A DNA stretch of 64,000 nucleotides from Chthoniobacterales bacterium (GTDB lineage Bacteria > Verrucomicrobiota > Verrucomicrobiia > Chthoniobacterales > Chthoniobacteraceae): the NCBI GenBank assembly GCA_038207335.1, contig JBBQZX010000007.1, positions 96,001-160,000 of the forward strand. Reading direction: 5' to 3'. The first letter of the stretch is position 1. Each line of letters begins with the position of its first letter. A model generated the notes under the pieces. It had not been told where the DNA came from. It searched no databases and was given only the letters and a program-made list of their open reading frames with translations. The position numbers were made by a program, and so were the translations under genes. This document shows positions 4,819 through 21,304 of the stretch, piece after piece.

Positions 4819-5703
4819 TTAGTTCGGCGAGCCCGTGGATGTCCGCACGGGCGGAGCATCGGGCGTCGGCGGAGCGGAGACTGCCTTCTCGCCGGAGGGC
4901 GCTGGCTGTGCGGCGCCAGGAGCGGGTGCTGGAACGACAGGCGTGGGGGCGTCGGGGTGCTGGAGTTTCGCGAGTTCCTGATACCACGAGTCCCAGTCAC
5001 TCTGCGGCTCGACGGCCATCGTGGCGCGCATGGCGTAATGACCCGCGCCGCAAAGCTGCGCGCAGACGATCTCGAAATTGCCCGTCTTGATCGGGCGGAA
5101 CCAAACCGGCACACGCGATCCCGGAATCGCATCCTGCGTGATGCGCATGTTGTGCAGCGAAAGACTGTGGATCACGTCCTTTGAGGTAATCTCGATGACA
5201 GTCGGCTTGTAATTGATGAGGTGCAGTTCGTTTTTTGAAACCACGTCGTCCTTGCCTGCAGGGTCGTTCGGATCGAGGCCGAGCGGATTGTTCGCATCCA
5301 CGAGGTGCGCGTTCTGCCGTCCGAAGATGCCGTCAGGGCCGGGGTAGTGAAAATTCCACGCGAATTGCTCGCCGACAGCGTGGACACGCAGAGCCTGCGC
5401 TTTATCGGGGAAGGAATCCTCAGTCACGCGCTTGCCCCACAGCGGGAGGCCGAAGCCGAGCAGCAGCACCGCCTCAACGAGAACGACTGTGAACTCGAGA
5501 TGCGTGGAAACCTTGCTTTTAACACCGTGATAATTGGCGCGCGGATTCCGCGACCGATGGAAACGGTAGATCGTGTAGAGGAAAAAGATGAACCAGCCGA
5601 TGAACAGGAGGAGCATGAACCAATGGCAGAACTCGAGCATGTGATCGATCGAGTAGCCGTGTTCGGAAGCGTCGGGGACGATCCCCATCCATTTGTTGAG
5701 CAT
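4819..5703 (-). CDS. ctaC: Cytochrome c oxidase subunit II (CuA), no fused heme-c domain
   Basis: Two TM helices, QFAWNFHY, SKDVIHS, DAIPG, CAQLCGAGHYAM CuA motif; Pro/Ala tail; no CxxCH. Confidence 0.95.
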   Translation of the reverse strand: MLNKWMGIVPDASEHGYSIDHMLEFCHWFMLLLFIGWFIFFLYTIYRFHRSRNPRANYHGVKSKVSTHLEFTVVLVEAVLLLGFGLPLWGKRVTEDSFPDKAQALRVHAVGEQFAWNFHYPGPDGIFGRQNAHLVDANNPLGLDPNDPAGKDDVVSKNELHLINYKPTVIEITSKDVIHSLSLHNMRITQDAIPGSRVPVWFRPIKTGNFEIVCAQLCGAGHYAMRATMAVEPQSDWDSWYQELAKLQHPDAPTPVVPAPAPGAAQPAPSGEKAVSAPPTPDAPPVRTSTGSPN

Positions 5704-6561: not shown

Positions 6562-7539
6562 TCAAAGGAGGTAGAAGAGCGGGAAGACGAAAATCCAGAC
6601 GAGATCGACGAAGTGCCAGAAAAGACCGACGACTTCGACACGATTGGCGAGGTGCTCAGGGTTGGTCTTGTAGAGCTTCGCGCCAGGTCCCCAGAAATAA
6701 AGGAATACCAGCACGCCCGCCAAGACGTGCGCACCGTGCAAGCCGGTGATCGTGAAATAGACCGCGAAGTAGGAACTGTGCCGGGGGATGAACATGCTGG
6801 GACTCGAGATTTCCAAGTCTTCCGCGTGGATGACCGCGGTCTTCATCGACAGCTTCTTCGGCCAGAAATGCGGACGTTCGTTGTCTTCACTGGTCGGCTC
6901 GGCGTTCACCTCATCAAGCTGGATCACGTAGTCGGTGGGATCATCCGTGCGGATGATCGGCGCGAGACCTTCTGCCGAGTGTTCACCCTCAGCATGCAGT
7001 TCGTGCTCGAAATGTTCGGCGTTCTTCTCTGCCACCTCTGCGTAGTGGGAACCCTTCGGAGCATCGAGCAGGTGACCAGTGATCTCGTAGCGCGGATCGA
7101 GGTTGTGCTCCTTGAGGAAGGCGTTGCCGAGATAAGGCTCATACTTCTCCAGTGACTCTTTTTTGATGAAGACGCCGAAGTGATTGAACTTCTGCGGATA
7201 CTCATACGCCAGCTTCACCACAAGGAAGAGGATGCCACACAAGATCGTGATGGCCATGTAGAACTTGTATTGCGCGAACTTTCGCATCTTCAGCGCAGCC
7301 CAAGACAACACTACCGTGACCGATGACAGGATGAGCACCGCGGTGTTGAATGTGCCAACTGGAACATTCAGCAAGCCGTGCGGCCAGTATCCCGGTTCAG
7401 CGCCAAGGCGGAGAAAGATGTAGCCCGAGAAAAGCCCGCCGAAGAGCATGACTTCCGATGCCAGAAAGAGCCAGATGCCCAGCTTGGCATTGTAGAGCCC
7501 CGTGTCCGGGCGCGCCGTTACTTCATGTGGAATTTGCAT
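6562..7539 (-). CDS. ctaE: Cytochrome c oxidase subunit III with a large soluble insertion
   Basis: KLGIWLFLASEVMLFGGLF, NTAVLILSS, YFTITGLHGAHV, GLFWHFVDLVWIFVFPLFY motifs. Confidence 0.95.
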   Translation of the reverse strand: MQIPHEVTARPDTGLYNAKLGIWLFLASEVMLFGGLFSGYIFLRLGAEPGYWPHGLLNVPVGTFNTAVLILSSVTVVLSWAALKMRKFAQYKFYMAITILCGILFLVVKLAYEYPQKFNHFGVFIKKESLEKYEPYLGNAFLKEHNLDPRYEITGHLLDAPKGSHYAEVAEKNAEHFEHELHAEGEHSAEGLAPIIRTDDPTDYVIQLDEVNAEPTSEDNERPHFWPKKLSMKTAVIHAEDLEISSPSMFIPRHSSYFAVYFTITGLHGAHVLAGVLVFLYFWGPGAKLYKTNPEHLANRVEVVGLFWHFVDLVWIFVFPLFYLL

Positions 7540-7542
7540 GTC

Positions 7543-9471
7543 TTAGTGTGCCTGAGCTGGAACCGGAACGGCGGAAGCGACGACTTTGACTCCAACCGGC
7601 TCAGTCTGAGGCGTGAAGTCTTTGTCTGCCCCAGGGACGCTGTATTCGTAAGGACCGCGATAGACGGTGATTTCGGTATCGAAGTTCCCATGTCCGGGAG
7701 GCGACGGCGCATCCCATTCGACGGTCGTCGCATCCCACGGATTCCGGCCGACTTTCTTTCCGTTAAACATGCTCCAGAAGAAATTGAAGATGAACGGGAG
7801 TTGGAACGCGGCGAGGCAGAACGCCGAGGTGCTCATGAATTTATTCCAGTGCAAGACGGGGCCCGCGAACTGATAAGTCAAGTGCTCCAAATCCGCGCCA
7901 CCGCCATCGTACCAGCGGCGATGCACACCCGCCATGCCTTGTAGGAACATGGGGAAGAAGAGGCCATTGATGAAAACCAAGGAACCCCAGAAGTGAATGC
8001 GGCCAAGGAAGTCATTCAACTGGCGACCGGTCGCTTTTGGGAACCAATAATAGACGCCGGCGAAAATAGCGAAAATCGTTCCCGGCGCGACGATGTAATG
8101 GAAGTGCCCGATGATGTAGTAGGTGTCGTGCAGGTAGAGATCGACGGCATTGAAGGCCAGCGGGATGCCCGTAAGACCGCCGATGCCGAACATTGGCATG
8201 AAGGCAGTGGCGAACATCATCGGCATGGTGAATCGGATCGACCCGCCCCACAGCGATAGCATGAGTGCGGTGATCAGGATGACCGATGGGATGGAGATGA
8301 GGATGGTCGTGACTTGGAAGAAGCCCGCGACCGTGGCGCCCATCCCAGTCATATACATGTGATGCGCCCAGACGATGAACGAGAGGAAGGCGAGGACGAA
8401 GATCGCGCCGACCATCGCTTTGTATCCGTAGAGCGGCTTGCGCGTGTTATTTGCCACGACCTCCGCGATTATGCCGATGCCGGGCAGGATGAGGACATAG
8501 ACCTCCGGGTGAGCCAAGAACCAGAACAAGTGCTGCCAGAGCAACGGACTGCCGCCGCCGGACCAGTCGGTGAGCCTTTGCCCCACGATCAAGCCCGTCG
8601 GCATGAAGAAGCTCGTGCCGAAGACGCGATCCATGAACTGGAAGATGCCCGCGGCCTCGAGCGGAGGGAACGCGAGAAGCAGGAGGAAGGCGGTGATGAA
8701 TTGCGCCCAGACGAAGAACGGGAGGCGCATCCAAGTCATGCCCGGCGCGCGTAATTGGATGATGGTCGCGATGAAGTTCACGGAGCCCAGTAGGGAGGCC
8801 GTGATGTTGAAAATCATGCCGGTGAGCCAAAGGGTTTGGCCGTTGAAAAAGTGGTGGTGGCCAATGCCCATGTCCGCGATGCCTGCGAGCGGCGGGTAGG
8901 CCGTCCAGCCCGATTTTGCGGCACCGCCGGGGACGAGGAAACTGACGAGCATGAAGATACAACTGATGAAGAAGCACCAGTAGCTCGCCATGTTGATGCG
9001 CGGAAAGGTCATGTCGGGCGCGCCGATTTGCAGCGGGACGACGAAGTTTCCAAAAGCGGCGAAGGCAATCGGCACGATGCCGAAGAAGACCATGATGGTG
9101 CCGTGCATCGCACCCATCGTGTTGTAGCCGTCGGGCGATAGGACTCCGGCAGGAAATTGGTCGCTGATGGCGCGCAGCCAGAACCAGCCGTCGAATTGCC
9201 CCGCGACGACTGGATGGGTCACGAGGAAGTTTTGCGCAGCGATGAAGGCGTGGCCGATGACTGGCACCGCGGTGCCAGGATGCGCGAGCTGCCACCGCAT
9301 GATGAGCATGAGGCAGAAGCCGAAGAACAGGAACGCGAGGCCGGTCAGGCCATACTGGATGCCGATCGTTTTGTGATCGGTGGAGAAGATGTATTTCCGC
9401 CAATAGCTGAGCTCGTGATGATGGTCGTCGTGATGCGCGGCGTGCGGATCGGCGTGTGTGTGAATTTCCAT
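7543..9471 (-). CDS. ctaD: Cytochrome c oxidase subunit I, type A1 (aa3)
   Basis: STDHKTIG, MHGTIMVFF, PDMTFPRIN, HPEVY, WAHHM, LHDTYYIIGHFHY, RR; all six His ligands present. Confidence 0.97.
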   Translation of the reverse strand: MEIHTHADPHAAHHDDHHHELSYWRKYIFSTDHKTIGIQYGLTGLAFLFFGFCLMLIMRWQLAHPGTAVPVIGHAFIAAQNFLVTHPVVAGQFDGWFWLRAISDQFPAGVLSPDGYNTMGAMHGTIMVFFGIVPIAFAAFGNFVVPLQIGAPDMTFPRINMASYWCFFISCIFMLVSFLVPGGAAKSGWTAYPPLAGIADMGIGHHHFFNGQTLWLTGMIFNITASLLGSVNFIATIIQLRAPGMTWMRLPFFVWAQFITAFLLLLAFPPLEAAGIFQFMDRVFGTSFFMPTGLIVGQRLTDWSGGGSPLLWQHLFWFLAHPEVYVLILPGIGIIAEVVANNTRKPLYGYKAMVGAIFVLAFLSFIVWAHHMYMTGMGATVAGFFQVTTILISIPSVILITALMLSLWGGSIRFTMPMMFATAFMPMFGIGGLTGIPLAFNAVDLYLHDTYYIIGHFHYIVAPGTIFAIFAGVYYWFPKATGRQLNDFLGRIHFWGSLVFINGLFFPMFLQGMAGVHRRWYDGGGADLEHLTYQFAGPVLHWNKFMSTSAFCLAAFQLPFIFNFFWSMFNGKKVGRNPWDATTVEWDAPSPPGHGNFDTEITVYRGPYEYSVPGADKDFTPQTEPVGVKVVASAVPVPAQAH

Positions 9472-9566: not shown

Positions 9567-10040
9567 TTACTTGGCGGCGGGTTCTTCCTTCCACGCCTTC
9601 AACTCAGGCTCCGTCCACGGTGTCTTTCGATCGGTGAATTTCTTGCGCGCGGCGGCCACGACATCAGCGGCGACGGCAGGCGCGATGTTGCCGAAATTGG
9701 AGCGGACGTAGGTCATCACGGCGGCGATTTTCTCGTCGGTGAGCATGGCTTCTTGGCCCGGCATGATGTTGTTGTAGGGCTTGCCTTCGACGGTCATCGG
9801 CCCGGCGTTTCCTTTCAAGATCATGGCTGCCATGCGCTCGGCAGGGCCATTGACGTATTCGGATTTTGTGAGCGGCGGGAATACTGGCGGGAGGCCGAGC
9901 CCGGTCGGCTGGTGGCACGCGAAGCAGACGGTCATGTAAACGGTCTTGCCCATCGCAACTTGCGCGGGCGGAGCGTCTTGTGCGGAGGCGGTGCTTAAGG
10001 TCGCGGCGACGGCGTAGGCGAGAGCGAGTAGGTTTTTCAT
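9567..10040 (-). CDS. Periplasmic monoheme cytochrome c
   Basis: Signal peptide MKNLLALAYAVAATLSTASA from the ATG at 10040; CFACH; NNIMPG distal Met. Confidence 0.92.
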   Translation of the reverse strand: MKNLLALAYAVAATLSTASAQDAPPAQVAMGKTVYMTVCFACHQPTGLGLPPVFPPLTKSEYVNGPAERMAAMILKGNAGPMTVEGKPYNNIMPGQEAMLTDEKIAAVMTYVRSNFGNIAPAVAADVVAAARKKFTDRKTPWTEPELKAWKEEPAAK

Positions 10041-10053
10041 GGTGGAAAAGTGG

Positions 10054-11544
10054 TTACTGTGCGGGCGCTGGGGCGGCGGGTTCGGGCGCGGCAGGCGCGG
10101 GTGCTGGAATAGCGGGTGGCGCTGTCGGAGGAGGCTGCGAGGCAGGAGCCGGTGGCGCAATAGGCGGGGGTGGTGGCTCCGATTGAGCTGGTGCTGGAGC
10201 CCGTGGAACTGGCGCAGGTACGGGCATCGGAGCAAGGGCTGCTTCGGGCGTTGCCACGGCTGGCGGGATGGTTGGCGCTGCGGGAGCGGGTGTCGCTGGT
10301 ACGGCGGCCTCGGGCGCGGGCGCGGCACCGCCGAATGCTTTCAATTCCGGTTCCGTCCACGGCGTCTTGCGGTCGGCAAATTTCGCTCGCGCCGCCGCGA
10401 CGACGGCCGGCGAGACGGGCGGCGCGGAGTTGCCGAAATTAGCGCGGACGTAGGTCATCACCGCGGCAATCTTGTCATCGGTGAGCATCGCCTCCTGACC
10501 GGGCATCACGTTGTTGAAAGGCTTGCCTTCGACGGTCATCGGTCCGGCGTTCCCTTTCAGGATCATCGCCGCGAAACGCTCTTCAGGCCCGTTCGCGTAC
10601 TCGGACTTCACGAGCGGCGGGAAGACCATCGGCAGGCCGAGGCCTGTCGGCTGGTGGCACGCGAAGCAGACAGTCATATAGACCTGCTTGCCTTGCGCCA
10701 ATTGCGCTGGGTCGGCAGAAGCGGGCGCGGGCATGGCTGCGGGCATTGGGGCTCCTTGAGCGGGAGTTCCAGCAATCAGGGGCGCGGGAGTCTCCGCTGC
10801 GGCAGCGGCAGGCGCGGGTGTGGCTGGCTTGGCTGCAGGCGCTGCACTCGGCGCGGCGTCGGCTTGTTCGTAGTTCGCATCCGCCGGAATTTGGAGTAGT
10901 TGCGCTTCCGTCCATGAGGCCGTCTGGTTCTCGAATTCCTTCTTCGCCGAGGTGACATCGGCCTCGGTCACTTCGGGCGCGGCATTTCCCCACTCCGAGC
11001 GGATGAAGCTCAAAACTGCAGCGATCTTTTTGTCGCTCAGATTCTTTTCCCACGGCGGCATGACGCCATTGAAAATTTGGCCTTCGACATGCACCGGGCC
11101 TTGTAGGCCTTTGAGCAAAATCGCGATCAGCCGCTTCTCGCCACCGAGCGCAAACTCGGACTTTACGAGCGGCGGAAATTGCCCCGGCACACCGAGCCCG
11201 TTTTGCTGGTGGCACGTCACGCAGTTCGCATAGACCGCCTTGCCCTGCTGCGCGAGCGTCAGCGTCGCGGCAGCTTCGGACTTTCCGCCGGCCTTTGCTG
11301 GCAGCGGAAAGAGCGCGGCAGGCGAACTTTCGTATTCGTTGTAGATATTCGACGAAAAACCCCCGTGGAATACGCCGAGGTAAGCACCCGCCCAAAGGAC
11401 TGCGACGCCGCAGACCGCGGTGAGCCACAGTGGGATCGGCGTGACGTTTGCCTTTGGGTCGCCGTGCTCGCGCTGGATGGCGGCATGCACTTCCGTGACG
11501 TCGTCGGTTTCGCGATAGTCGATGCGTTCAGGACCTTCGTTCAT
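10054..11544 (-). CDS. Membrane-anchored diheme cytochrome c (CcoP position) with Pro/Ala-rich linker and tail
   Basis: N-terminal TM PIPLWLTAVCGVAVLWAGAYLG; CVTCH and CFACH hemes, each with an MP motif. Confidence 0.92.
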   Translation of the reverse strand: MNEGPERIDYRETDDVTEVHAAIQREHGDPKANVTPIPLWLTAVCGVAVLWAGAYLGVFHGGFSSNIYNEYESSPAALFPLPAKAGGKSEAAATLTLAQQGKAVYANCVTCHQQNGLGVPGQFPPLVKSEFALGGEKRLIAILLKGLQGPVHVEGQIFNGVMPPWEKNLSDKKIAAVLSFIRSEWGNAAPEVTEADVTSAKKEFENQTASWTEAQLLQIPADANYEQADAAPSAAPAAKPATPAPAAAAAETPAPLIAGTPAQGAPMPAAMPAPASADPAQLAQGKQVYMTVCFACHQPTGLGLPMVFPPLVKSEYANGPEERFAAMILKGNAGPMTVEGKPFNNVMPGQEAMLTDDKIAAVMTYVRANFGNSAPPVSPAVVAAARAKFADRKTPWTEPELKAFGGAAPAPEAAVPATPAPAAPTIPPAVATPEAALAPMPVPAPVPRAPAPAQSEPPPPPIAPPAPASQPPPTAPPAIPAPAPAAPEPAAPAPAQ

Positions 11545-11560: not shown

Positions 11561-12214
11561 TTACTTCGCCGGCGCCAGCGCGCCTTTGACTTCCTTCAAG
11601 GGATGGGTGGAATCGAGCGAAAGGAGGTAAGCGACGAGCTGGCGGGCCTCGGCTTTTGGCACGATCTCGTACCCATCTTTCGTCGCGACATTCAAGGCAT
11701 CGACCGACCGCTGGCCGCTGATCTTCCGCGTCTCGAAAAGGTATCGGTAGGGCGGCATGTTCGACTCATGCACGATCACGGTGGGCTGATAGAGATGGAG
11801 GTAATGCCATGCGGCATCTCGGCGCGCAGGTTTGCGCGGGTCGTTGATGTCTTCGTTGCGCCACTCTTTCGTCCCAACATCGGTCAGGTCCGGGCCGAGC
11901 CGCATGTTACCGAGAAATGTGGGATTTTTATAAATGTAGTCCCGTGCGACGGTGCGCCGAGCTCCCCACCCGCGCTCGATGTCGAGGCCGTTTTGCGGGT
12001 CGCGAATTTGCTGCGAATGGCAGTAGAAGCAACCTTCGGAGGCATAGACCTCGCGGCCTTTGCGGGGATTGTAAACGGGATATACATCGCCCGCGTCTTC
12101 ATCGACCTGCGGCTGGAGCCCGCCCAACTGCACCTGCGGCACGAGCACGAGCGCAAAGCAGGAGATCGCGAACGATCCGAAGATTCCGGCGAAGAGATAG
12201 GATGAGCGGCTCAT
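11561..12214 (-). CDS. ccoO: cbb3-type oxidase subunit II-like monoheme cytochrome c
   Basis: GREVYASEGCFYCHSQQIR, RLGPDL, WHYLHLYQP, SNMPPY match CcoO motifs. Confidence 0.92.
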   Translation of the reverse strand: MSRSSYLFAGIFGSFAISCFALVLVPQVQLGGLQPQVDEDAGDVYPVYNPRKGREVYASEGCFYCHSQQIRDPQNGLDIERGWGARRTVARDYIYKNPTFLGNMRLGPDLTDVGTKEWRNEDINDPRKPARRDAAWHYLHLYQPTVIVHESNMPPYRYLFETRKISGQRSVDALNVATKDGYEIVPKAEARQLVAYLLSLDSTHPLKEVKGALAPAK

Positions 12215-13708
12215 TTAATGTTTCTCCTCTCCAGGGACCGCGAAGAGTGTCGGCGCGCCGCCCGGTTGTCCGATCCGCAGCAGCATGAGCAGGAAGTGGA
12301 GCGCGAAGATGATGTGCGCGATGGCTACAAAGCCAATCGCGAGTGTGTGACCGGCGAGATAGACTTGGCCGATGCCGATGACTTGGGTGAAGGTCGCCTC
12401 CGGATCGATCATCGCAAGGCCGGCGGCGAGACCGGAGAAGGCAAGCATGGCGATGAGGACTCCGCCGCCGTAAGCCGCTCCCCAGAAGTGGAGCTTGATG
12501 AGTGTGGAGGAAAGCCACTCGCAGCCGACGAGACGCGGCGTGATGTAATAGATCGCGCCGAACATGATCATCGAGAAGAACGCGTAGATGACCAGTTGAT
12601 GCTGCGCGGCTTGGAACTGCGTGAAGTGGACGATGCTATCGACGCTTCGGAGCGAGGTGAGGATTCCCACGACACTGGCGACCGCAAAAGCCACGGTGCC
12701 AAAGTAGGTGAAGCGGATGGTGGGAGAGTAATAGACCATCTGCGTGTGGCCGCGCATCGTGAAGATGAGGTTGGTCGTCACGGTTGCGATGGGCACGAGC
12801 ATCATGAGGCTCGCCGCGATGCTCACGGTCGCGAGCCATGCGGGGATCGGGCCACCGCTGAGACGCACCATCGCGGTGAGTCCGCCGAAAAGTGCAAATG
12901 TCCAGAAGCCGATAGTCGCGAGGTTGTAGCTGTAGATCGGCGTGTTGACGACTTTCGGAATGAGGTAGTAGGCCGCGGCCAGACCGATGGCGGTGAACCA
13001 CAGGACGAGGATACTTTGCGAATACCACGCGGCGACGACGCTCTGCATGACTCCTTGGAGCTGTGGCAAGCCGTTTAGGAGCTGCGCGACGCCGAAGAGC
13101 CACGGGAACCAGAAGAAGGCGCCGAGCAGATACCAGACAGAAATATAGACGGGCGATTTGCGGCGGAAGCGGTAAAGGATCGCGCCCCACAGACCGACGA
13201 GGACGTATCCTAGGAACATGATCGCCGCCGCGGCACGGGGGATCTCCATGCCTTCGATGCCGGAGGTTTTACCAGCGAGGATGCAGAGGATGCCGATGAC
13301 TAGGCCGAGATTCCAAAGCAACGCGCCGAAAACGAGAAAGCCAGGGTAGCGGATGGAGACGCGACAGAGTCGCGACATGAGCCAGATGCCGACGCCCATT
13401 CCAGCGAGGCTGGCCCAGCCGTAGGTCAGGGTGAGATTGTAAGCCGGGGCGATGCGGCCGTACGTGAGCCACGAGCAATCGGCGAGGAAGCCGGGGTGGT
13501 GGAGCTTCACCGAGGTGATGAAGCCGAACACGGTGGAGAGGAGGAGCCAGCCGATCGCGGTGGTGAAGAAGAGCAGCACCGGGCCCGCTGCGGCGGCGTC
13601 GATCGTCGCGCGTTCTATGGATACTTTGGCCTTCGCCGCTTGGGCGGGCACGGCCTCGATCGCGACGGCCGTTGTCGGTTTGATTTCTGGAGCGGCGACG
13701 GCGGTCAT
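12215..13708 (-). CDS. cbb3-type oxidase subunit I-like (CcoN-fold) protein lacking heme/CuB histidines
   Basis: Scaffold motifs WLTYGR, E..E, YISVWY, YYLIPK..PIYSY, HFTQ, LHFW are kept; ligand His positions are substituted. Frame is intact and coupled to its neighbours. Confidence 0.9.
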   Translation of the reverse strand: MTAVAAPEIKPTTAVAIEAVPAQAAKAKVSIERATIDAAAAGPVLLFFTTAIGWLLLSTVFGFITSVKLHHPGFLADCSWLTYGRIAPAYNLTLTYGWASLAGMGVGIWLMSRLCRVSIRYPGFLVFGALLWNLGLVIGILCILAGKTSGIEGMEIPRAAAAIMFLGYVLVGLWGAILYRFRRKSPVYISVWYLLGAFFWFPWLFGVAQLLNGLPQLQGVMQSVVAAWYSQSILVLWFTAIGLAAAYYLIPKVVNTPIYSYNLATIGFWTFALFGGLTAMVRLSGGPIPAWLATVSIAASLMMLVPIATVTTNLIFTMRGHTQMVYYSPTIRFTYFGTVAFAVASVVGILTSLRSVDSIVHFTQFQAAQHQLVIYAFFSMIMFGAIYYITPRLVGCEWLSSTLIKLHFWGAAYGGGVLIAMLAFSGLAAGLAMIDPEATFTQVIGIGQVYLAGHTLAIGFVAIAHIIFALHFLLMLLRIGQPGGAPTLFAVPGEEKH

Positions 13709-14199
13709 TTTTTGGTCTCGATGGGAGCGGGAAGAGCGGCGGGCGCGGCAGCGGCGGCAGGTGACGGGGCAGTCTCAAAGCGAATGGTATCCGCGCCTTG
13801 CGGGGATGACGGGAGCGCGGGTGGCGCGGGCTCTTTGGCGTCGGGGTCGTAGGGCGCAGGCATCGGGAGCGCGGGCTCGACTTTGACTTGGGAAGCCGCG
13901 GGTTTCTTGGAGTTCAGTTCGGCAAGCACGAGCTTGCGGGCATCGGCGAGCGGGATGTGCGCGACTCCTTTCGCCTTGTCCACCCAGCCAACGGTGCCGA
14001 GGCGTTCGTCGTCGGCTTTTTGAAGCGCTTCGCGCTTCTCGATGCGAGCGGCGGCACGATTGTCTTCGACCTGGCCGAGAGGGGCGCCGTTTCTCGCCCA
14101 GATACAGACTACGAGGGCGAAGATAATGAAGAAGAAGATCGCCCAAACGAAGGTCAGGAAACCGCTGGGCTTGGCATGAGGTGTTTCTTCGATCGTCAT
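13705..14199 (-). CDS. actG: Alternative complex III subunit G-like
   Basis: One TM helix; GWVDKAKGVAHIPLADA motif; lies directly after actF. Confidence 0.72.
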   Translation of the reverse strand: MTIEETPHAKPSGFLTFVWAIFFFIIFALVVCIWARNGAPLGQVEDNRAAARIEKREALQKADDERLGTVGWVDKAKGVAHIPLADARKLVLAELNSKKPAASQVKVEPALPMPAPYDPDAKEPAPPALPSSPQGADTIRFETAPSPAAAAAPAALPAPIETKK

Positions 14200-14200
14200 G

Positions 14201-15403
14201 TCAGTTGGTCAGTTTGATAGACGCTGCGAGCCGCGGGTCGCGGGTGGGGAAGAGATAGGTCGCCCCGAGGTTTTTGAAAAACAGCCACACGAGGATCGCG
14301 CCGATTCCAACGAGCGGGAGCAGGTCGAAAACGCTGGGTGATGCGCCTGTCGAGTGCAGCGCGGGGAGGACGACGACGTAGATGTCGATCATGTGGATGA
14401 AGAGAATCCAGCCGGCGACCATGCAGAGGTAGCGCGGCTTTTTCTTTGTCCACTGAAGTAGCAAAACTGGGAAAGGCAGGAAGAATCGTCCGACTACGAG
14501 CAGGGTGCTAAAATACCACCAGCTGTTGGTGTTGCGAATCTGGAAGTAGATCGTCTCTTCCGGGATATTCGCATACCAGATGAGCATGTACTGGCTGAAG
14601 CCGATGTAGGCCCAAAAAATGGTGAAGGTGAGCATGAACTTGCCCATGATGTGGTAGTGCTCGAGCGTGACCACGTTCAGATGCCCGCGAATCTTTAGCC
14701 AAGTGATGATGAGCACGAGCAGGGACATGGAGCTGCCCGCTGCACCGGCGAAGAGATAGACACCCCACATGGTCGAGAACCAGTGGTAGTTCAGGCTCAT
14801 CAACCAATCGACTCCAGAGAATGTGATGCCGAGAGCTACAGCGAAAATGCCCGCGACTCCCAACTTCCGCATCGCAAAACTATGCCTCGCCGCTCCATCT
14901 TTGTCTTGGAGAGTAGAGTGGCGCTTGAGTCCGAATGCGATGCCTCCGAGAGCAAGGAAATAAACGGCGGCGCGGATAAGGAAGAACGGCTTCGAGAGGT
15001 ACGGCTGCTTGGCGTCCAGTAACGGATCGATGCCCGGGCTAAGGTTCCACCATTTAAACAGGATGCCAGCGCAGAGCAGGATCGGGATGAAGAACAGGAC
15101 GAAGTACGGGATAAGGCTCGCGACGTTTTCCAACTGTCGCCGGACGACGACCGACCACTCCGCATCGGTGGCGTGATGGAGGCAAATCCAGAAAAGCGTC
15201 CCAACGCAAATCGTGAAGAAGTAGGTGAAGGCGAAGAGCCATGAGAACGCGAACTGCGGACGCCAGCCGGGGACGATGAGACCAATGAAGCTCAACAGGA
15301 TCGCGACCGCGCCGACGCCGAGCAAGATAGTCGGCAGGCCACCGAGTTTCTTGATATCGAACTTCTCGGCTACGGGAACAGGAGTGTCGTGTGAGTCGCT
15401 CAT
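14201..15403 (-). CDS. actF: Alternative complex III subunit F
   Basis: Polytopic; DWLMSL..WFSTMWG, FWAYIGFSQYMLIWYANIPEE, PTRDPRL motifs. Confidence 0.93.
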   Translation of the reverse strand: MSDSHDTPVPVAEKFDIKKLGGLPTILLGVGAVAILLSFIGLIVPGWRPQFAFSWLFAFTYFFTICVGTLFWICLHHATDAEWSVVVRRQLENVASLIPYFVLFFIPILLCAGILFKWWNLSPGIDPLLDAKQPYLSKPFFLIRAAVYFLALGGIAFGLKRHSTLQDKDGAARHSFAMRKLGVAGIFAVALGITFSGVDWLMSLNYHWFSTMWGVYLFAGAAGSSMSLLVLIITWLKIRGHLNVVTLEHYHIMGKFMLTFTIFWAYIGFSQYMLIWYANIPEETIYFQIRNTNSWWYFSTLLVVGRFFLPFPVLLLQWTKKKPRYLCMVAGWILFIHMIDIYVVVLPALHSTGASPSVFDLLPLVGIGAILVWLFFKNLGATYLFPTRDPRLAASIKLTN

Positions 15404-16089
15404 TGCTTCTTTTCCTGCTGCAATTCTTTCTGCTGCGCCTCGGATAGATCGGCGAGCTTCGCATTTTGGCTGCGCTGGAGCGTGCGCAGGTAGCTCACGA
15501 TGGCCCAGCGATCTTCCACCGCGATCTGCGGACCGTAGGCACCCATCGTGTTCTTGCCGTTGGTGATCGTGCTAAAAATCTGACCGTCGGGCATCGTGCG
15601 GATTCGCTCGTCTTGCAGGTTTGCCACCGTGGCCCAGTTGCCGATTTGCTGGACGATTCCGTTGCCCATGGCGGTGTGGCCGTGGCAGACGGCGCAGTTG
15701 ATGTCGAAGCGCTGCTGGCCTCGCTGTATCAGCTTGTCGGTGACTTCGAGCGGGAAACCGTCGCCATAGACGTCGCCGAACTTGCCGGTGTTGTAATAGT
15801 CGGGCTGGTTGCTGAATCCCTCCTGCGCGAGCGTTCCGTTCTTTGCTCCGGCTTGAAGGTATCGGCCCGGCAGGCTGTAGCCGATCGGCACCGTTCCGGC
15901 GACGGGTTTGCGCTCGGCACTGCCGTCAGCGAAGAAGCCGCTCGTGTGCTGTGGCTGATACTTTGGCTGACGATCCATGTCCGGGAAAATCTCGAGCGGA
16001 GGCAGCTCGCTCTTTGCGCCGCGGAAGCCGGCGAGGGCGATCACCGCGCAGGTTATTAAGAGAAATGAGGCGAAGAAATAACGAAGCAT
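15400..16089 (-). CDS. actE: Alternative complex III subunit E (monoheme cytochrome c)
   Basis: PDMDRQPK, PVAGTVP, RGQQRFDINCAVCHG, DRWAIVSY motifs. Confidence 0.93.
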   Translation of the reverse strand: MLRYFFASFLLITCAVIALAGFRGAKSELPPLEIFPDMDRQPKYQPQHTSGFFADGSAERKPVAGTVPIGYSLPGRYLQAGAKNGTLAQEGFSNQPDYYNTGKFGDVYGDGFPLEVTDKLIQRGQQRFDINCAVCHGHTAMGNGIVQQIGNWATVANLQDERIRTMPDGQIFSTITNGKNTMGAYGPQIAVEDRWAIVSYLRTLQRSQNAKLADLSEAQQKELQQEKKQ

Positions 16090-16102: not shown

Positions 16103-16648
16103 CTAGTCGTGGATGAGGGTCACGTGCTTGCCGCCGATGCCTTCGAGAAGCTCGCGAGTCTTGGACTCCGAGAACTTCGGATCACGGGCTTCGATGACGA
16201 CGAAGAAGCCATCGTCGGTCGCGCGCTTGAAGCGCTCCCAGTTAAAGACCGGATGATACCACTTCGGCAGTTGGTTCATGATGAGCAGCGCGAAGACTGT
16301 GGCGAATGCCGAGCAAAGGATCGTGAGCTCGAAGAAGATCGGGAAAAAGGCGGGGACCGTGCGCCAATCGAACGGCTTGCCATGCACGATGAGCGGGTAA
16401 ATTCCCCACGAAGGAATGAAGGTGAGGCAAACTGCGGTGAGCAGACCGGTGATTCCGCCGCAAAGGACCGCAGCGGAAAGCCATGACTTGCCGAGACCCA
16501 TCGCGCTGTCCATGCCATGCACGGGAAATGGGGAGTGGACATCCCAGCGTTTGAAGCCGGCGTCGCGCACTTTTTCAGCGGCGATCATGAGGTCGGCGGC
16601 TGTGTCGAACTCCGCGCCCAATCCATATACTTTACGGTATTCAGCCAT
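16103..16648 (-). CDS. actD: Alternative complex III subunit D (DUF3341)
   Basis: DVHSPFPVHGMD, GKP..PAFFPIFFELTIL, ATDDGF motifs. Confidence 0.95.
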   Translation of the reverse strand: MAEYRKVYGLGAEFDTAADLMIAAEKVRDAGFKRWDVHSPFPVHGMDSAMGLGKSWLSAAVLCGGITGLLTAVCLTFIPSWGIYPLIVHGKPFDWRTVPAFFPIFFELTILCSAFATVFALLIMNQLPKWYHPVFNWERFKRATDDGFFVVIEARDPKFSESKTRELLEGIGGKHVTLIHD

Positions 16649-16658
16649 GTCGTTTGAC

Positions 16659-18107
16659 TTAGGAATGGTGAGCGTTTGTGCCGACGCCGGAACCGGGCTT
16701 GCGTTGATGCGGGTCAGCTTCTGGAGTGACGATTTTAACCTCGGACATCGCGATCATCGGGAGGAAGCGCATGAAGAGTAGGAAGAGAGTCAAAAAGATG
16801 CCGAAGGTGCCGACGAAGGTCCAAATTTCGACCCATGAAGGCGAGTAGTGCCGCCACGAGGACGGCAGGAAATCCTGAGCCAGCGAGGTTACGATGATGA
16901 CGAATCGCTCGAACCACATGCCAGTATTGACGAACATGCAGACGATGAAGACGACGATGTAGTTCGACCGTGCCCATTTCAGCCAGAAAATCTGCGGCGA
17001 AAGGACGTTGCATGTCATCATGCAATAGTAGGCCCATGAGTACCAGCCGGAGTTGTTGATGCCGATGCGTGCATGGAAGAAGGTAAACATCTCGAACTTG
17101 TTCGCGCTATACCACGCGATGAAGAGTTCCATCAGATACGCGTATCCGACGATGCTGCCTGTCAGCAGGATGATCTTCGCCATTTTATCGACATGCTGAC
17201 GGGTCAGGAGATCGTCGAGCTGCGGATAAAGAAGCCTGGCCGGAAGCAGGATGGTGAGCACCATTGCGAAGCCGCCGAAGATTGCGCCCGCGACGAAGTA
17301 AGGCGGGAAGATGGTGGTGTGCCAGCCGGGTAGGATGGATGTGGCAAAGTCGAAGGAGACGACGGAATGCACGGAGAGCACGAGCGGAGTGCTGATGCCG
17401 GCCAGGATGAGATAGGCCATCTCGTAGTGGCGCCATTGGCGGTTCGAGCCGCGCCAGCCCAAGGCGAAGATGCCGTAGAGGTAGCGGGAGACGCGGTTTT
17501 TCGCGCGGTCGCGCAAGGTCGCGAGATCGGGGACGAGGCCGGTATACCAGAAGAGGACGGAGACGGTGAAGTAGGTCGAGACTGCAAAGACGTCCCAGAG
17601 CAGCGGAGAGCGGAAGTTTGGCCAGATGGCGTTGCCGTTCGGAACGGGTGCCAGAAACCACGCCATCCAAACACGACCGACGTGGATGCCGGGGAAGATG
17701 CCGGCGCAGACGACGGCGAAGAGCGTCATGGCCTCGGAGGCGCGGTTGATGGAGGTGCGCCACTTTTGCCGGGTCAGGAAAAGCACGGCGGAAATGAGCG
17801 TGCCGGCGTGGCCGATGCCGATCCAGAAGACGAAGTTCGTGATGTCCCACGCCCAGCCGACGGTCTTGTTTTCCCCCCACATACCGACGCCGTTGGAGAT
17901 TTGCAGGCCGATACAGAAGAGGCCGAAGAGCGCAACCGGGGTCGTGATCAGCATCGCGAGCCACCACCAGAGCGGGGTGCGCGATTCGACGATGCTCGAG
18001 ACATTGTCTGAAATCCACGAGAGCGAGCGGTCGTTCTGCACCAACGGAACTTTGACGAGTTCCGGCTGAGTCGTGAGGGAAACTGTGGGGGCGTCGGCTT
18101 CAGTCAT
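16659..18107 (-). CDS. actC: Alternative complex III subunit C (NrfD family quinol-oxidising subunit)
   Basis: [65 protein letters not shown] motifs. Confidence 0.97.
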
Positions 18108-21100
18108 TACGCTTCACCTCCGGGATGTTCGGCTTTGCCTTCATGGCTCTCGTGATGGTGTTCTCGCGAATAGGCTCCGACCTTCTCCGCACCCGGCATT
18201 TTCATGTTGGGGTTGCGGATACGGGCCAGATACCAGACGCGGGTGCCGACGTTGAGATACTCGAGGAGCCGGTAGCCGCGCTCAGTGGCGCGCACTTTCG
18301 AGACGCTGCTGTCGGGGTTCGCGATATCGCCAAAGGTGATCGCATCTGTCGGACAGGCTTGCGCGCAGGCTACTGTGAAGGCATCGGCGGGGATGCGGAT
18401 GTTATCGGAATCGCGCGCGGCGACCTTTGCAGCGATTTTAGCTTCCTGGATTCGTTGCACGCAAAAGGTGCATTTTTCCATGACTCCGCGCATCCGGACG
18501 GTGACGTTCGGGTTCTTCTGAAGCTTGATGGAATCCTCGGTGCCTTTCGGCGCGGTGAGGTTCCATTTATAAAGGCCGCGGTCTTCGATGTTGCGCTGGT
18601 TGTAGTCGAAGAAGTTGAAGCGGCGGACTTTGAATGGACAGTTGTTCGCGCAGTATCGGGTGCCGATGCAGCGGTTGTAGGCCATCACGTTTAGTCCGTC
18701 GTCGCTGTGAACGGTGGCGTTGACGGGGCATACGGTTTCGCACGGCGCATTCTCGCAGTGCTGGCAGAGCATGGGCTGATAGACCATCTCAGGATCGGCG
18801 GTCTCGTCGCCGACTCCCGCAAAGTAACGATCGGTGCGAATCCAGTGCATCTCGCGGCCGTTGTGGACCTGCTCTTTGCCGACGATCGGAATGTTGTTCT
18901 CCGACTGGCAGGCGACCATGCAGGCGGAGCATCCGGTGCAGGACGAAAGGTCCACGGTCATTCCCCACTGGTGCTGGTTCGTGAGCGGCGGGTGGGAATA
19001 GAGAGAGCTGGTAACAACCTCGGTTTTCTTGCCGTTGACGACTTTCCACTCGGCCTCGGCATCCATGCCGAGCGTCTTTGCGAATTCAGGGTTCTCCTTG
19101 TATTGCTCGATCGTCCCTTCACGGACGAGGTCAGGGCCACGGCCTTCGAGCGTGCCGTGCTCCTGCGTGACTGCGAGAAGGTAGGTGTCGCCGGTTTTCG
19201 CAACTTTCGCGCCGACGATGAAATAAGGCTGTGCGGTGCTGCGGAGGCGGTAGGCATTGAAGCCGGGGCTCTTGCCTGTTGCGTCTTTTCCGCCGACGCG
19301 ACCGGAGACTTCGCGGCCGTATCCGAGTGCGATCGAGAGTGAATTGTCGGCGTGCCCGGGCGCGATAAAAACGGGGATTTTCAGCGAACGCTCCTGCACG
19401 GTGATGTCGATCACGTCGCCGGTTTCGACGCCGAGCTTTGCGGCACTGGCGGGGCTGATGAGAGCGGCGTTGTCCCATGTGACCTTGGTGATCGGATCGG
19501 GGATTTCCTGGAGCCAGCCGTTGTTGGCGAAGCGTCCGTCATCGACTGTGTAGTCGGCAGTGAGGACGATCTCGAAGCTGTTTTCGTCGAGAGCGGGAGC
19601 GGAAAAATTGTCCTTCGCGGATGTCGTGGAGTCGGCGGAAATCGCGAGCGGCTCGGGCTTTGCAGCGCTGTGGGCGAGGAAGCCGTCGTGGAGGAATTTT
19701 GCCCACGCGACGGTGAAATCGGCGGGGCTGGCGGCTTGGCGGAAAGTTTCTTGGATGAGCTCGGGGCCGGTGGTTTTTGCGTGGCCGGCGAATTTTGCGA
19801 GGATGTCCAGCTCCGACCAGCCGTCGTAGAGCGGCAGGATCATCGGCTGGATGGAAAGGTGGCTGCCGTCGGTGGCGTAGGCGTCGCCCCACGACTCGAG
19901 ATAGGTCGCGATCGGCACCTGCCAGGTGGCGAGTTCGGAGGTTTCGTCTTCGTGCAGGCCGACGCGGACAATCGTGCCTTTTTTCTCGTCGCGGAGGGTC
20001 TTGAGGACTTTCGCGAATTCGAGGTCGGACGGCGCGTTGTAGATCGGATTGCCGCCGATGATGATGATCGCGCGGGTCGTGCCGTCGCCGATCGATTTGG
20101 TGAGTTCGCCGATGCTGGCGGCGGGCTTCGCGCCGCGGCGACCGGTGAGCGTTTTGTCGAGGTTGCCGAGCGCGGAGTTGATCGACGCGACGATCGCGTG
20201 GACTCCGGCGGGCTGGCGCGAACCGACGACGACGAGGCTTTTGCCTTTGTTTGCGAGAAGATCGGCGGCGGATTCTTTCACCCACTCCGCGGAGATTTTC
20301 GCGGTCGCGGGCGGGAGCGTTTTTACCAGCGCGAGGAGCGCGGAGTCGCTGGATTTCGCGCCGATTTCCTGCGCGAGGGCGAGGGCGAAGGCACCGATTT
20401 GGCTCGCGGGCATCCGCAGACGGTGGTCGGCCATGCCGCCGGTGACGGTGTAGCGATTTTCGACCGCGTAGAGGCGGTTCATCTTGCCGCCAGCGTCGGG
20501 CTTGCGGCGCGCGGTGAATTGCCGCGTGATGTCGATGGTCGATTCCGTGCCGAGGAAATCGCAGTCGAGCGCCATGATGACGTCGGCTTTTCCCATCTGC
20601 GGAATCGCGGAGATGCCTGCTCCGAAGCTGCCCTCCGGGCCGCCGAGCGGCTCATAAACGGCCCACATCGCCTTTGGAAATTTCTCCTCGATCTCGCCGC
20701 GCAGTCGCTCGCGAGTCGGCCCGTGAATTTCTTCCAAAAGGAACGCGATGCCCGCGCCGTCGGCGGCGTTTTTGATCAGCTCGTCGAGTTCTTTTTCAAA
20801 GGTCGCGACGTCGGACTTTTTGCCGTTTTTGAGGAAATGCTGTGAGCGATCCGGGTCGTAGAAATCGAGGATTGAGGCCTGGGCGAAGATGTCTGTCGCG
20901 CCTTTGCTGGCGGGGTGCAGCGGGTTGCCCTCAATTTTCGTGGGGCGTCCGTCGTGAGTCGTGACGACGAGCGGGATCGCGCCGTTGCGGGTCGGGTAGG
21001 CGCTGGAGAAAAATAGGGCCTTGCCGGGAATCGACCACTCGACGCCGCGCGTGAACGGGACGAGTTGCATTTCCGGCCGGCGGCAGCCGGCGAAGCTGAG

Positions 21101-21304
21101 GCCGGCGAGCGCCATCGACGCGCCCATGAGCTGGAGGAAATTGCGACGGGAAACTTCGCCGCCGCCGAACTCTGACGCACCTTGCGGGAACTCGCGCTCG
21201 AGCCAGCCGCGGAATTCCGGGGTGCCGGAGAGCTGGCCGAGGCTGCGCCAGTATTTCTTGCCAGTGGCGGCCTCGGGCGGGTGATTGAAAACGCGTTTGC
21301 TCAT
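18107..21304 (-). CDS. actB: Alternative complex III subunit B (molybdopterin-oxidoreductase-like plus Fe-S domain, Tat lipoprotein)
   Basis: YWRSL, REFP, SRRNFL Tat motif with FAGC lipobox, [10 protein letters not shown]; Fe-S motifs [40 protein letters not shown]. Confidence 0.97.

Follow-up and report, generated by a model that had tools for sequence, protein, structure and literature searches.

A CcoN homologue without ligand histidines encoded between ACIII and aa3 oxidase genes in a Chthoniobacterales bacterium

Introduction

CcoN, subunit I of the cbb3-type oxidases, possesses six invariant histidines, comprising two haem b ligands, one haem b3 ligand, and three CuB ligands. Redox-silent NrfD-like or antiporter-like subunits contribute proton paths in other complexes. 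For the gene arrangement of ACIII with cbb3, Refojo et al. 2010 is cited in excerpts of PMC8498564; the same excerpts describe the ACIII-aa3 supercomplex of Flavobacterium johnsoniae (Sun et al. 2018), which is coupled directly, without a soluble carrier. Respiratory proteins called 'deranged' are known from Acetobacteraceae, including an Acetobacter COX1-like protein that lacks every metal ligand and bc1 complexes in which ligands of haem or FeS are missing (Degli Esposti et al. 2023, excerpts of PMC10715153).

Here, we analysed a window of 64,000 nt from a Chthoniobacterales bacterium (GCA_038207335.1, JBBQZX010000007.1, positions 96,001-160,000), which carries a CcoN homologue without ligands, named psN in this study. 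Our literature search found no paper describing ligand loss in ACIII-linked CcoN homologues. An 'unknown group' of cbb3-like sequences, which reportedly appears in Refojo 2010, Ducluzeau 2008, Sousa 2012, and Muntyan 2015, might overlap the psN family.

Gene Organization of the psN Locus

The psN gene (12215..13708, minus strand) has an ATG start and encodes a protein of 497 aa with the predicted 12-TM fold of haem-copper oxidase subunit I. The original prediction of a full-length ORF coupled to its neighbours was borne out, and the coding strand is the minus strand. The start codon of psN and the stop codon of the ORF before it overlap (ATGA), and the TAA stop of psN stands directly before the ATG of a CcoO-like gene, so the coupling to neighbours holds. 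A look-up for RNA runs covering 11561-14199 returned none.

The ACIII genes lie upstream, all on the minus strand. ActA (21317..21991, 224 aa) is a pentahaem cytochrome c that matches cytochrome c7/c3 families and carries five CxxCH motifs; ActB (18107..21304, 1065 aa) is iron-sulfur/molybdopterin-like, with matches to several 4Fe-4S dicluster families and, weakly, to Molybdopterin; ActC (16659..18107, 482 aa) is an NrfD-like quinol-interacting membrane subunit (PF03916 NrfD, E 6.8e-18); ActD (16103..16648, 181 aa) matches PF11821 ActD (E 3e-57); and an ActE-like monohaem cytochrome c (15400..16089, 229 aa) matches PF13442 and PF00034 and has one CxxCH. The following gene (14201..15403, 400 aa) gave no Pfam match and matched no family model; we take its product to be the ActF-like ACIII membrane subunit from its place after ActE and the operon order of ACIII. 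Between actF and psN lies orf164 (13705..14199, minus strand), the stop of which overlaps the psN start. Its product has an N-terminal hydrophobic segment (probably single-TM) and a Pro/Ala-rich tail and had no match in Pfam, NCBIfam, or PDB; tblastn located orf164 at the equivalent place in Chthoniobacterales and g26 genomes.

Three cytochrome c genes follow psN on the minus strand. The first, named psO here for the CcoO-like partner (11561..12214, 217 aa), encodes a CcoO/FixO-like membrane-anchored monohaem cytochrome c with CFYCH at residue 62 (PF02433 FixO, E 1.1e-21; TIGR00781, 77 bits, under the cut-off of 200). The second (10054..11544, 496 aa) encodes a CcoP-like dihaem cytochrome c with CVTCH at 108 and CFACH at 293, an N-terminal hydrophobic segment (judged by eye), and Pro/Ala-rich linkers; PF00034 and PF13442 each match two stretches of it, and TIGR00782 ccoP reaches 58 bits, under its cut-off. 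The third (9567..10040, 157 aa), the start of which is an internal ATG picked within a longer ORF (9567-10328), encodes a small monohaem cytochrome c with CFACH at 39 and a signal-peptide-like N-terminus; it is similar to domain 2 of the CcoP-like dihaem protein and is conserved in close relatives.

The aa3 genes are located further downstream of psN on the same strand. CoxI (7543..9471, 642 aa), an A-type haem-copper oxidase subunit I (PF00115, E 8.6e-127; TIGR02891 CtaD_CoxA, 545 bits), is likely the true terminal oxidase of the cluster. It is accompanied by oxidase subunit III (6562..7539, 325 aa; aa3 CtaE / CyoC models under cut-off) and oxidase subunit II, CoxII (4819..5703, 294 aa; TIGR02866 CoxB, E 1.2e-34), which carries no fused cytochrome c domain and gave no CxxCH in a scan of its translation.

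Ligand Residues and Predicted Fold of psN

The loss of all six ligand histidines and of the cross-link Tyr, proposed from the sequence at the outset, was confirmed with phmmer against two solved reference chains, namely Pseudomonas stutzeri CcoN 3mk7_A (E 2.3e-23) and 9g6b_A. The replacements are H60 to Y90, H207 to Q231, Y251 to G275, H257 to V281, H258 to R282, H345 to Q369, and H347 to Q371 (3mk7_A numbering first), and the motif strings quoted previously (GRIAPAYN, AWYSQS, GGLTAMVR, HFTQFQAAQHQ, YISVW, PIYSY, and HFW) are all found in the psN translation. One histidine, H370, sits between Q369 and Q371 (codons GCG CAG CAT CAA in this stretch). The ligand columns read HHYHHHH, invariantly, in 43/43 ligand-complete relatives and in a ligand-complete fused CcoNO encoded on another contig of the same genome, which places the replacement of ligands in psN beyond chance. 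An artefact of poor alignment was rejected, as the same columns result from phmmer against both solved chains, from MAFFT alignments of the family, and from the structural match.

The fold was likewise predicted to be kept, and the AlphaFold2 model of psN (pLDDT 91.6) is CcoN-like. Its best Foldseek match is 3mk7_A (TM 0.85/0.91, rmsd 1.5 A), and the top 7 matches are all CcoN chains (TM 0.84-0.85 / 0.89-0.91), at an identity of ~19% between psN and CcoN in the structural alignment. Pfam COX1 matches psN with E 2.3e-43, psN falls below the cut-off of the ccoN equivalog TIGR00780 (106.3 bits vs 583.15), and the Atlas lookup for psN returned only generic cbb3/COX1 clusters. As in CcoN, the model, Foldseek, and Pfam indicate a 12-TM fold of the haem-copper oxidase subunit I type, and CcoO-like (monohaem) and CcoP-like (dihaem) genes, both below equivalog cut-offs, adjoin the gene; the six His ligands of CcoN are missing from psN, and at the position of the cross-link Tyr no row of either dead (ligand-less) clade has Tyr. 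With its catalytic residues gone and its predicted fold kept, psN has the properties of a pseudoenzyme.

The loss in the dead CcoN clades extends past the ligand residues. At 42 positions, conservation reaches 90% or more in canonical as well as in ligand-complete ACIII-linked CcoN. Of these, 13 have disappeared from both dead clades, among them the positions of R87, N92, E152, S300, and Y341; another 15 are kept in both, and all of these are P, G, W, Y, F, N, or R.

Ligand States, Selection, and Origin of the psN Family

A sequence search yielded 829 psN homologues, the best 120 of which are nearly all without ligands. Clustering at 50% gave 388 representatives at E<1e-30 to psN; among the best 150 of them, 135 are full-length, with no His at the six sites in 71 and all six present in 4. 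Full-length homologues with ligand loss number in the hundreds, and full-length psN orthologues are spread over several orders of Verrucomicrobiota, with identities of 31-86% (25-26% in g26 genomes).

With the single psN protein as query, 100 related loci were compared, in which the ligands are lost in 57 and complete in 43. Upstream sequence of 2500 nt or more was available for 89 loci, and in 75 of them ActF immediately precedes the CcoN homologue. In 49 of the 50 lost-state loci with that much upstream sequence, ActF is found within 1.8 kb, and the remaining one (L080) has ActE-ActF-orf164 upstream; the lost state is thus linked exclusively to ACIII among loci with enough upstream sequence. 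Next after psN comes psO in 56/57 lost-state loci, and a CcoP-like dihaem gene stands 3' of psO in nearly all related loci. The haem c site of psO is kept in the lost-state operons (His in 57/57, the Met153 position in 53/57), and different verrucomicrobial orders share the synteny with ACIII and with the CcoO/CcoP-like genes. CoxI is present downstream in 20/42 lost-state vs 2/26 full-state ACIII-linked loci, counts that are not independent because the genomes are related; the other 22/42 lost-state ACIII-linked loci have no CoxI in the available downstream sequence, so the aa3 link is not universal.

Partial ligand sets form a graded series, from complete, to loss of Tyr and one CuB His, to haem b ligands only, to loss of all. 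A sister group reading HNAQRYH keeps both haem b ligands and the GRxRPAH motif, and the psN orthologues of L007 and L011 retain the histidines that correspond to H345 and H347, so that 'cofactor-free' may not hold family-wide. The Methylacidiphilum 'cbb3 oxidase' reported next to ACIII is also ligand-poor.

According to the original prediction, psN is a selected pseudo-enzyme, and a shared His loss next to act operons and dN/dS<1 were proposed as checks; both came out positive. The dN/dS of psN is 0.060 (vs L007) and 0.078 (vs L011) for orthologues 85-86% identical, figures that are rough as dS of 1.2-1.5 is near saturation, and lies within the range of its ACIII and aa3 neighbours, among them ActB (0.077/0.087) and CoxI (0.045/0.043), in the same two comparisons. 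These values, the confidently predicted fold, the homologues with the same loss, and the conserved synteny support selection. That psN is a pseudogene in neutral decay, still open by chance, is hardly credible and was rejected: every catalytic ligand is gone, but there are no stops or frameshifts, and the large family includes full-length orthologues.

The psN family descends from ligand-complete ACIII-linked cbb3 genes. In the trees, lost forms nest within an ACIII-linked clade, the basal and sister members of which read HHYHHHH; this clade holds 86/98 rows in the FastTree tree (support 100) and 45/49 rows in the quick IQ-TREE tree (support 99). In both trees, and by gene order, psN belongs with the CcoN genes located behind actABCDEF and is separate from stand-alone CcoN. 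Ligand loss arose several times independently, with 3 ligand-state changes needed in the former tree and 4 in the latter. A single ancient loss was rejected by an AU test against one clade of all 27 lost rows (p 1e-18), which was run after the first tree had been seen, although its constrained group was chosen from the ligand states, independently of that tree.

Proposed Function of psN

All metal-binding histidines are gone, so psN likely no longer reduces O2; haem b, haem b3, and CuB are probably absent from it. Judging from sequence and predicted structure, we lean moderately towards psN being a cofactor-free membrane scaffold that derives from ACIII-linked cbb3 and holds the CcoO/CcoP-like cytochromes c beside ACIII. 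Its physical partners would be ACIII, psO, and the dihaem cytochrome, and it would anchor haem-binding psO and the dihaem cytochrome c between ACIII and the downstream aa3. Electrons might then run from ACIII through psO and the dihaem cytochrome c to CuA of aa3, with no O2 reduction in psN. A scaffold role is the default explanation for dead enzymes and is hard to falsify from sequence.

A scaffold without cofactors could also be kept as an ion/proton conduit or coupling module on ACIII, making use of the remnants of the oxidase channels, and not as a mere anchor, which we consider unlikely. The predicted 12-TM fold is kept with high confidence; R85, Y247, Y248, N313, and Y387, common to real CcoN, are conserved in both dead clades; and the former CuB His position occupied by R282 is often basic (108 R and 10 K among 120 homologues). 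Excerpts of PMC8498564 also call proton pumping by ACIII open. However, E152, S300, and Y341 are invariant in real CcoN and belong to the positions lost in both dead clades, and with the redox centres gone a channel has no driving reaction to couple to. A more elaborate proposal, to which we give little credence, is that dead, cofactor-free CcoN serves as an ion-conducting ACIII arm, a permanent part of an ACIII/pseudo-cbb3/aa3 megacomplex, where it would tether the haem c wire and also raise the H+/e- yield of ACIII through a proton path like those of the redox-silent subunits of other complexes; such an arm would have evolved several times in Verrucomicrobiota from a working cbb3 oxidase.

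Alternatively, psN might be an assembly or stability factor for the biogenesis of ACIII or aa3, outside the working electron path. The COX1-like Acetobacter protein without ligands, for which excerpts of PMC10715153 propose a structural role, is a precedent, and psN does lie between ACIII and oxidase genes; yet the co-encoded, translationally coupled haem c subunits keep their redox sites, and a stoichiometric complex fits this better than a chaperone, making the assembly role quite improbable.

It is very doubtful that psN binds haem or another metal via non-canonical residues, for a redox reaction or for electron transfer from psO. Y90 and H370 adjoin former ligand sites, and psO keeps the haem c that feeds haem b in real cbb3; the histidines of L007 and L011 at the H345/H347 positions and the two haem b ligands of the HNAQRYH group point in the same direction. 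Against this, no substitute His shows conservation: among 120 close homologues, just one has His at position 370, positions 369 and 371 alternate between H and Q among the orthologues 85-86% identical, and the H60 position is Y, F, A, or S in 120/120. The CuB positions are without His in psN, and among the 120 close homologues His occurs at H207 in 16, at H257 in 0, and at H258 in 1; the R87 and N92 positions of real CcoN are lost in psN as well.

Annotation and Implications

It was anticipated that psN would be miscalled as a functional cbb3 oxidase, and the source names of homologues and the literature agree with this. Members of the psN family carry the annotation cbb3-type oxidase subunit I. 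Where excerpts of PMC8498564, PMC6688271, PMC10205796, and PMC11102522 reconstruct the respiration of Verrucomicrobiota, cultured methanotrophs of Methylacidiphilum included, these genes are counted as a high-affinity oxidase. If psN-family proteins indeed have no haem b3-CuB centre, their carriers have one oxidase fewer than assumed, and a microaerobic lifestyle inferred from 'cbb3 present' would be wrong for psN-carrying lineages. The graded ligand-loss series, repeated at one fixed genomic position, is a good system for studying the evolution from enzyme to structural subunit. In addition, psN points to an undescribed ACIII accessory module, and both ACIII-oxidase coupling and energy conservation are open questions.

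Comparison with Known Systems

Canonical CcoN (Pseudomonas stutzeri, PDB 3mk7/5djq) is similar to psN in the predicted 12-TM fold, in homology, and in the order of CcoO/CcoP-like partners, whereas psN lacks the six His and the Tyr and is encoded within an ACIII-aa3 cluster. The ligand-complete ACIII-linked cbb3 genes of Opitutales and other Verrucomicrobiota (L026-L030, L099-L117) have a psN-like position directly after actABCDEF and psN-like partners, share 37-44% identity with psN (~41% for the sisters in Opitutales), and form one clade with it in both trees. Unlike psN, they keep HHYHHHH and presumably encode working oxidases, and 24/26 are without aa3 downstream in the available sequence.

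To our knowledge, no CcoN-like subunit has been reported for the ACIII-aa3 supercomplex of F. johnsoniae. As portrayed in excerpts of PMC8498564, this supercomplex serves as the model for the role of psN, and a comparable supercomplex may be formed by the products of the psN locus. The 'deranged' proteins of Acetobacteraceae, so far as excerpts of PMC10715153 describe them, are like psN respiratory catalytic subunits that were retained after ligand loss and for which a structural role is proposed. They are A-family oxidases and bc1 of Alphaproteobacteria, whereas psN is a C-family protein tied to ACIII in Verrucomicrobiota, and psN differs from them, as they appear in these excerpts, in its several independent losses and its intact haem c partners.

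Gene organization of the locus

The gene psN, a CcoN homologue without metal ligands, is an ORF of 497 codons with an ATG start (12215-13708, minus strand), located within one long run of minus-strand genes that extends from ActA through psN to an A-type oxidase. ActA (21317-21991), a pentahaem cytochrome c, is the most upstream gene, followed by ActB (iron-sulfur/molybdopterin-like protein), ActC (NrfD-like protein), ActD (PF11821, E 3e-57), ActE (monohaem cytochrome c), and a 400-aa membrane protein that occupies the place of ActF; next, directly before psN, comes orf164, which encodes 164 aa with an N-terminal hydrophobic segment and has no known family. Directly after psN lies psO, a FixO/CcoO-like monohaem cytochrome c, and then a CcoP-like dihaem cytochrome c (10054-11544, from family matches and a CxxCH scan), a small monohaem cytochrome c (9567-10040, CxxCH), and, at the downstream end, subunits I, III, and II of the A-type oxidase, assigned by family models. 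The CxxCH sites of the dihaem protein and the small cytochrome are retained. The original prediction of a full-length gene coupled to its neighbours holds: psN encodes 497 aa, its start overlaps the orf164 stop as ATGA, and the psO ATG is immediately 3' of its own stop.

In sequence, the small cytochrome c almost repeats the second haem domain of its dihaem neighbour; the common YMTVCFACHQPTGLGLP stretch and the tblastn cross-hits between the two suggest a local duplication. The order of the oxidase genes, CoxI-CoxIII-orf-CoxII, is unusual, and the N-terminus of CoxI (A-type subunit I, 642 aa; 9412-9471, minus strand) is very rich in histidine (11 among the first 20 residues). The protein after CoxII (3523-4764), with many His-containing transmembrane segments, resembles by eye a haem A synthase.

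Ligand loss and predicted fold of psN

psN matches the Pfam COX1 family (E 2.3e-43), and its closest solved relatives are the N subunits of cbb3 oxidases (9g6b_A, E 1.8e-23; Pseudomonas stutzeri 3mk7_A, E 2.3e-23). The predicted loss of all six ligand histidines was confirmed by alignment to both chains, in which every one is replaced: with reference to P. stutzeri CcoN, H60 is Y90 in psN, H207 is Q231, H257 is V281, H258 is R282, H345 is Q369, and H347 is Q371, while the cross-link tyrosine, Y251, is G275. One histidine, H370, lies between Q369 and Q371. The NCBI ccoN equivalog model gives psN 106 bits vs a cut-off of 583. Ligands, tyrosine, and equivalog score were all checked, and none of the three marks psN as a CcoN.

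The AlphaFold2 model, computed from a 40-sequence alignment, has a mean pLDDT of 91.6 and a pTM of 0.91. Its top Foldseek matches are seven CcoN chains, the best being 3mk7_A (TM 0.85/0.91, rmsd 1.5 A over 453 columns, 19% identity), which agrees with the proposal that the fold was kept; the CcoN fold is predicted to be intact, with the metal sites gone. psN is a CcoN by fold and ancestry, not by its defining chemistry.

A word-indexed search returned 829 homologues of psN. Among the 120 of them listed, all full length and at least 58% identical, the H60 position is Y, F, A or S, the H207 position mainly Q (His in 16), the Y251 position G, S, A or T, the H257 position V, T, L or I, the H258 position R in 108 and K in 10, and the H345 position mainly Q (His in 11); the H347 position is His in 65. 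Searched exhaustively, the 50% representatives yielded 1896 hits (388 with E<1e-30); the best 150 include 135 full-length sequences, which keep no His at the six sites in 71 cases, one in 42, two in 15, three in 2, four in 1, and six in 4. A chance event confined to this genome is ruled out by a homologue family that shares the loss.

Gene context in related genomes

A total of 100 loci were examined, comprising 40 named MAG contigs (mainly Chthoniobacterales, Opitutales, and Puniceicoccaceae) and 60 stretches from an even, phylum-wide sample. Of the 401 genomes in this sample, 104 had a match, the window's own included, and the 60 stretches come from 56 of the 103 others. At the seven columns of H60, H207, Y251, H257, H258, H345, and H347, 43 loci have the full set (HHYHHHH, ligand-complete), and the other 57 lack one or more ligands (lost-state). 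Upstream context was scored where at least 2500 nt precede the gene, which holds for 89 loci. Among these, ActF lies no more than 1.8 kb from the gene in 49 of 50 lost-state loci, the exception being L080 (one of the four g26 genomes described below), where ActE-ActF-orf164 are somewhat further off, and no lost-state gene was seen outside a cluster for alternative complex III (ACIII); the ligand-complete loci are ACIII-linked in 26 of 39 cases and stand-alone in 13. The 76 ACIII-linked loci keep 0 (16 loci), 1 (18), 2 (12), 3 (1), 4 (1), 5 (2) or 6 (26) histidines at the six sites. Given at least 6 kb downstream, ACIII-linked genes are followed by a same-strand CoxI in 20/42 lost-state vs 2/26 ligand-complete loci, counts that are not independent because the genomes are related.

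Where a genome has a dead copy linked to ACIII, it often has, separately and away from ACIII, a ligand-complete CcoN as well, as does the window's genome; examples are G060 (L082/L083), G189 (L090/L091), G258 (L092/L093), and G366 (L129/L130). The clade also has ligand-complete members outside Verrucomicrobiota, namely contigs labelled Alcaligenaceae and Solibacteraceae, Telmatocola sphagniphila (Planctomycetota), and Alicycliphilus, Ottowia, and Diaphorobacter (L025, L037, P0125, and the P0149 cluster). Of these, L025 is ACIII-linked, and the 10 kb upstream of L037 contain no Act genes.

One side result reaches beyond the window locus, to Methylacidiphilum. Four genomes belonging to a single genus (g26, 2.2-2.4 Mb; L077-L080, from G279, G093, G111, and G132) share a psN-type cluster in the order Act genes, orf164, CcoN-like, CcoO-like, cytochrome c, CoxI-III-II. 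The CcoN-like protein (e.g., L077:8944-10389) is 25-26% identical to psN and, aligned to 9g6b_A, keeps one of the six histidines (H258 position), with Tyr replaced by Ser. The L077 ORF is 100% identical to 'cytochrome oxidase [Methylacidiphilum kamchatkense Kam1]' of NCBI and shares 72% identity with 'cbb3-type cytochrome c oxidase subunit I [Ca. Methylacidiphilum infernorum]'. Among the five or six COX1-family matches of these genomes, just the gene beside ACIII is CcoN-like, and passages of papers on these methanotrophs (PMC8498564, PMC6688271, PMC10205796, PMC11102522) count it as a cbb3-type oxidase. Judged by sequence, the published "cbb3-type oxidase" is probably not an oxidase, because none of the four genomes has a TIGR00780 match above the cut-off (best 28.5 bits vs 583).

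Origin and repeated loss of the ligands

Two trees (FastTree, 98 rows; IQ-TREE, quick search with a mixture model, 49 rows) were computed from alignments without the seven ligand columns. In both, the ACIII-linked genes form one clade apart from stand-alone CcoN (support 100 and 99, respectively), and its basal members are ligand-complete; psN descends from presumably working ACIII-linked cbb3 genes. It belongs to a clade from Chthoniobacterales and allies in which every member is lost-state (35 rows, support 97, FastTree; 13 rows, support 92, IQ-TREE); the sisters of this clade, L099 and L100, belong to the same order and are ligand-complete. A second large lost clade lies inside Opitutae, and L033/L038 and L034/L035 are further cases. 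Three (FastTree) or four (IQ-TREE) state changes are needed, although, given a quick search and long lost-state branches, the exact number needs care. When all 27 lost rows were forced together, the best tree was 175 log-likelihood units worse (p-AU 1e-18), which rejects a single origin of ligand loss.

The patterns HHFHSHH, HNAQRYH, and that of psN look like stages of loss. In HHFHSHH (L034 and L035, Puniceicoccaceae/Oceanipulchritudo MAGs), the only changes are Phe for the cross-link Tyr and Ser for one CuB His, suggestive of a loss at its very beginning or of a variant active site; the fully intact sister of this pair is L117. HNAQRYH occurs in a sister group in Chthoniobacterales (L016-L022, L039, L041, L042, L097, L098) that retains both haem b ligands and the GRxRPAH motif and has lost the CuB and haem b3 ligands, and may represent an intermediate still binding low-spin haem. 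At 300-365 aa, the psO of this group is longer and carries an insertion that breaks its tblastn hit into two parts.

Proposed function of psN

At 42 positions, conservation reaches at least 90% in both ACIII-linked ligand-complete and stand-alone CcoN. Both dead clades have lost 13 of these, namely the seven ligand/Tyr columns and the positions of R87, N92, E152, S300, Y341, and G458 (E152 and S300 are still present in psN itself), and both have retained 15, each P, G, W, Y, F, N or R; the remainder are mixed. In psO, the haem His is present in 57/57 lost-state operons (56 loci and the window) and the Met153 position is kept in 53/57, vs 43/43 for both in ligand-complete operons; psO is not degraded.

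The window's genome (94.7% complete) has four COX1-family genes: psN, the A-type subunit I 2.7 kb downstream of it, another A-type gene on contig 1 (L001), and a fused CcoNO of 780 aa on contig 45 (L003/L005), with complete HHYHHHH and the canonical GRLRPLHT motif. Besides the dead psN, there are presumably three working haem-copper oxidases. The cluster's CoxII lacks a cytochrome c domain, so the cluster oxidase needs an outside haem c donor.

In cbb3 oxidases, CcoN docks the transmembrane anchor of CcoO. We lean slightly towards psN being a scaffold or relay, a cofactor-free holder of c-type cytochromes beside ACIII. It would bind no haem b, haem b3 or CuB, would still dock the transmembrane anchor of psO, and would keep the CcoO-like and CcoP-like cytochromes at the membrane, adjoining ACIII; electrons from ActA/ActE would travel via these c haems, reaching CuA of the aa3 oxidase or, where aa3 genes are absent downstream, another oxidase. 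An ion conduit attached to ACIII, which the predicted fold would also suit, is an unlikely alternative. Residual redox chemistry via odd ligands is likewise unlikely, and H370 and its neighbours bear on it: at codons 369-371 (12596-12604), psN has QHQ vs HQH in its orthologues L007 and L011 (85-86% identical), with His and Gln swapped at all three. His and Gln codons differ in the third base only, so three third-base changes would explain the difference, and such free drift would not be expected of ligands. That psN is an assembly factor, a role compatible with its place between the ACIII and oxidase genes, is unlikely too. Neutral decay is contradicted by the dN/dS of psN against L007 and L011 (0.060 and 0.078), which, rough as these ratios are because dS is 1.2-1.5, shows psN to be as constrained as its working neighbours (ActB 0.077/0.087, CoxI 0.045/0.043, psO 0.068/0.088). 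With the loss shared across the homologue family, this upholds the view of a selected pseudo-enzyme rather than a decaying gene, and psN is very probably such a non-oxidase protein.

Comparison with known systems

No description of a ligand-less CcoN next to ACIII was found in the openly readable full texts searched. A figure legend in PMC5492636 credits Muntyan 2015 with an "unknown group" of cbb3-like sequences, which may or may not be the psN family. ACIII adjoining a C-type oxidase is mentioned for Opitutaceae and verrucomicrobial methanotrophs in a passage of PMC8498564, citing Refojo 2010, and the ACIII-linked cbb3 genes of Opitutales are the closest presumably working relatives of psN. 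The closest phenomenon in the readable literature is the "deranged" COX1-like protein of Acetobacter together with the ligand-less bc1 complexes of Acetobacteraceae, for which a structural role was proposed (PMC10715153). psN is a pseudo-enzyme form of the cbb3 oxidase that is widespread in Verrucomicrobiota, has arisen repeatedly, and is tied to ACIII.
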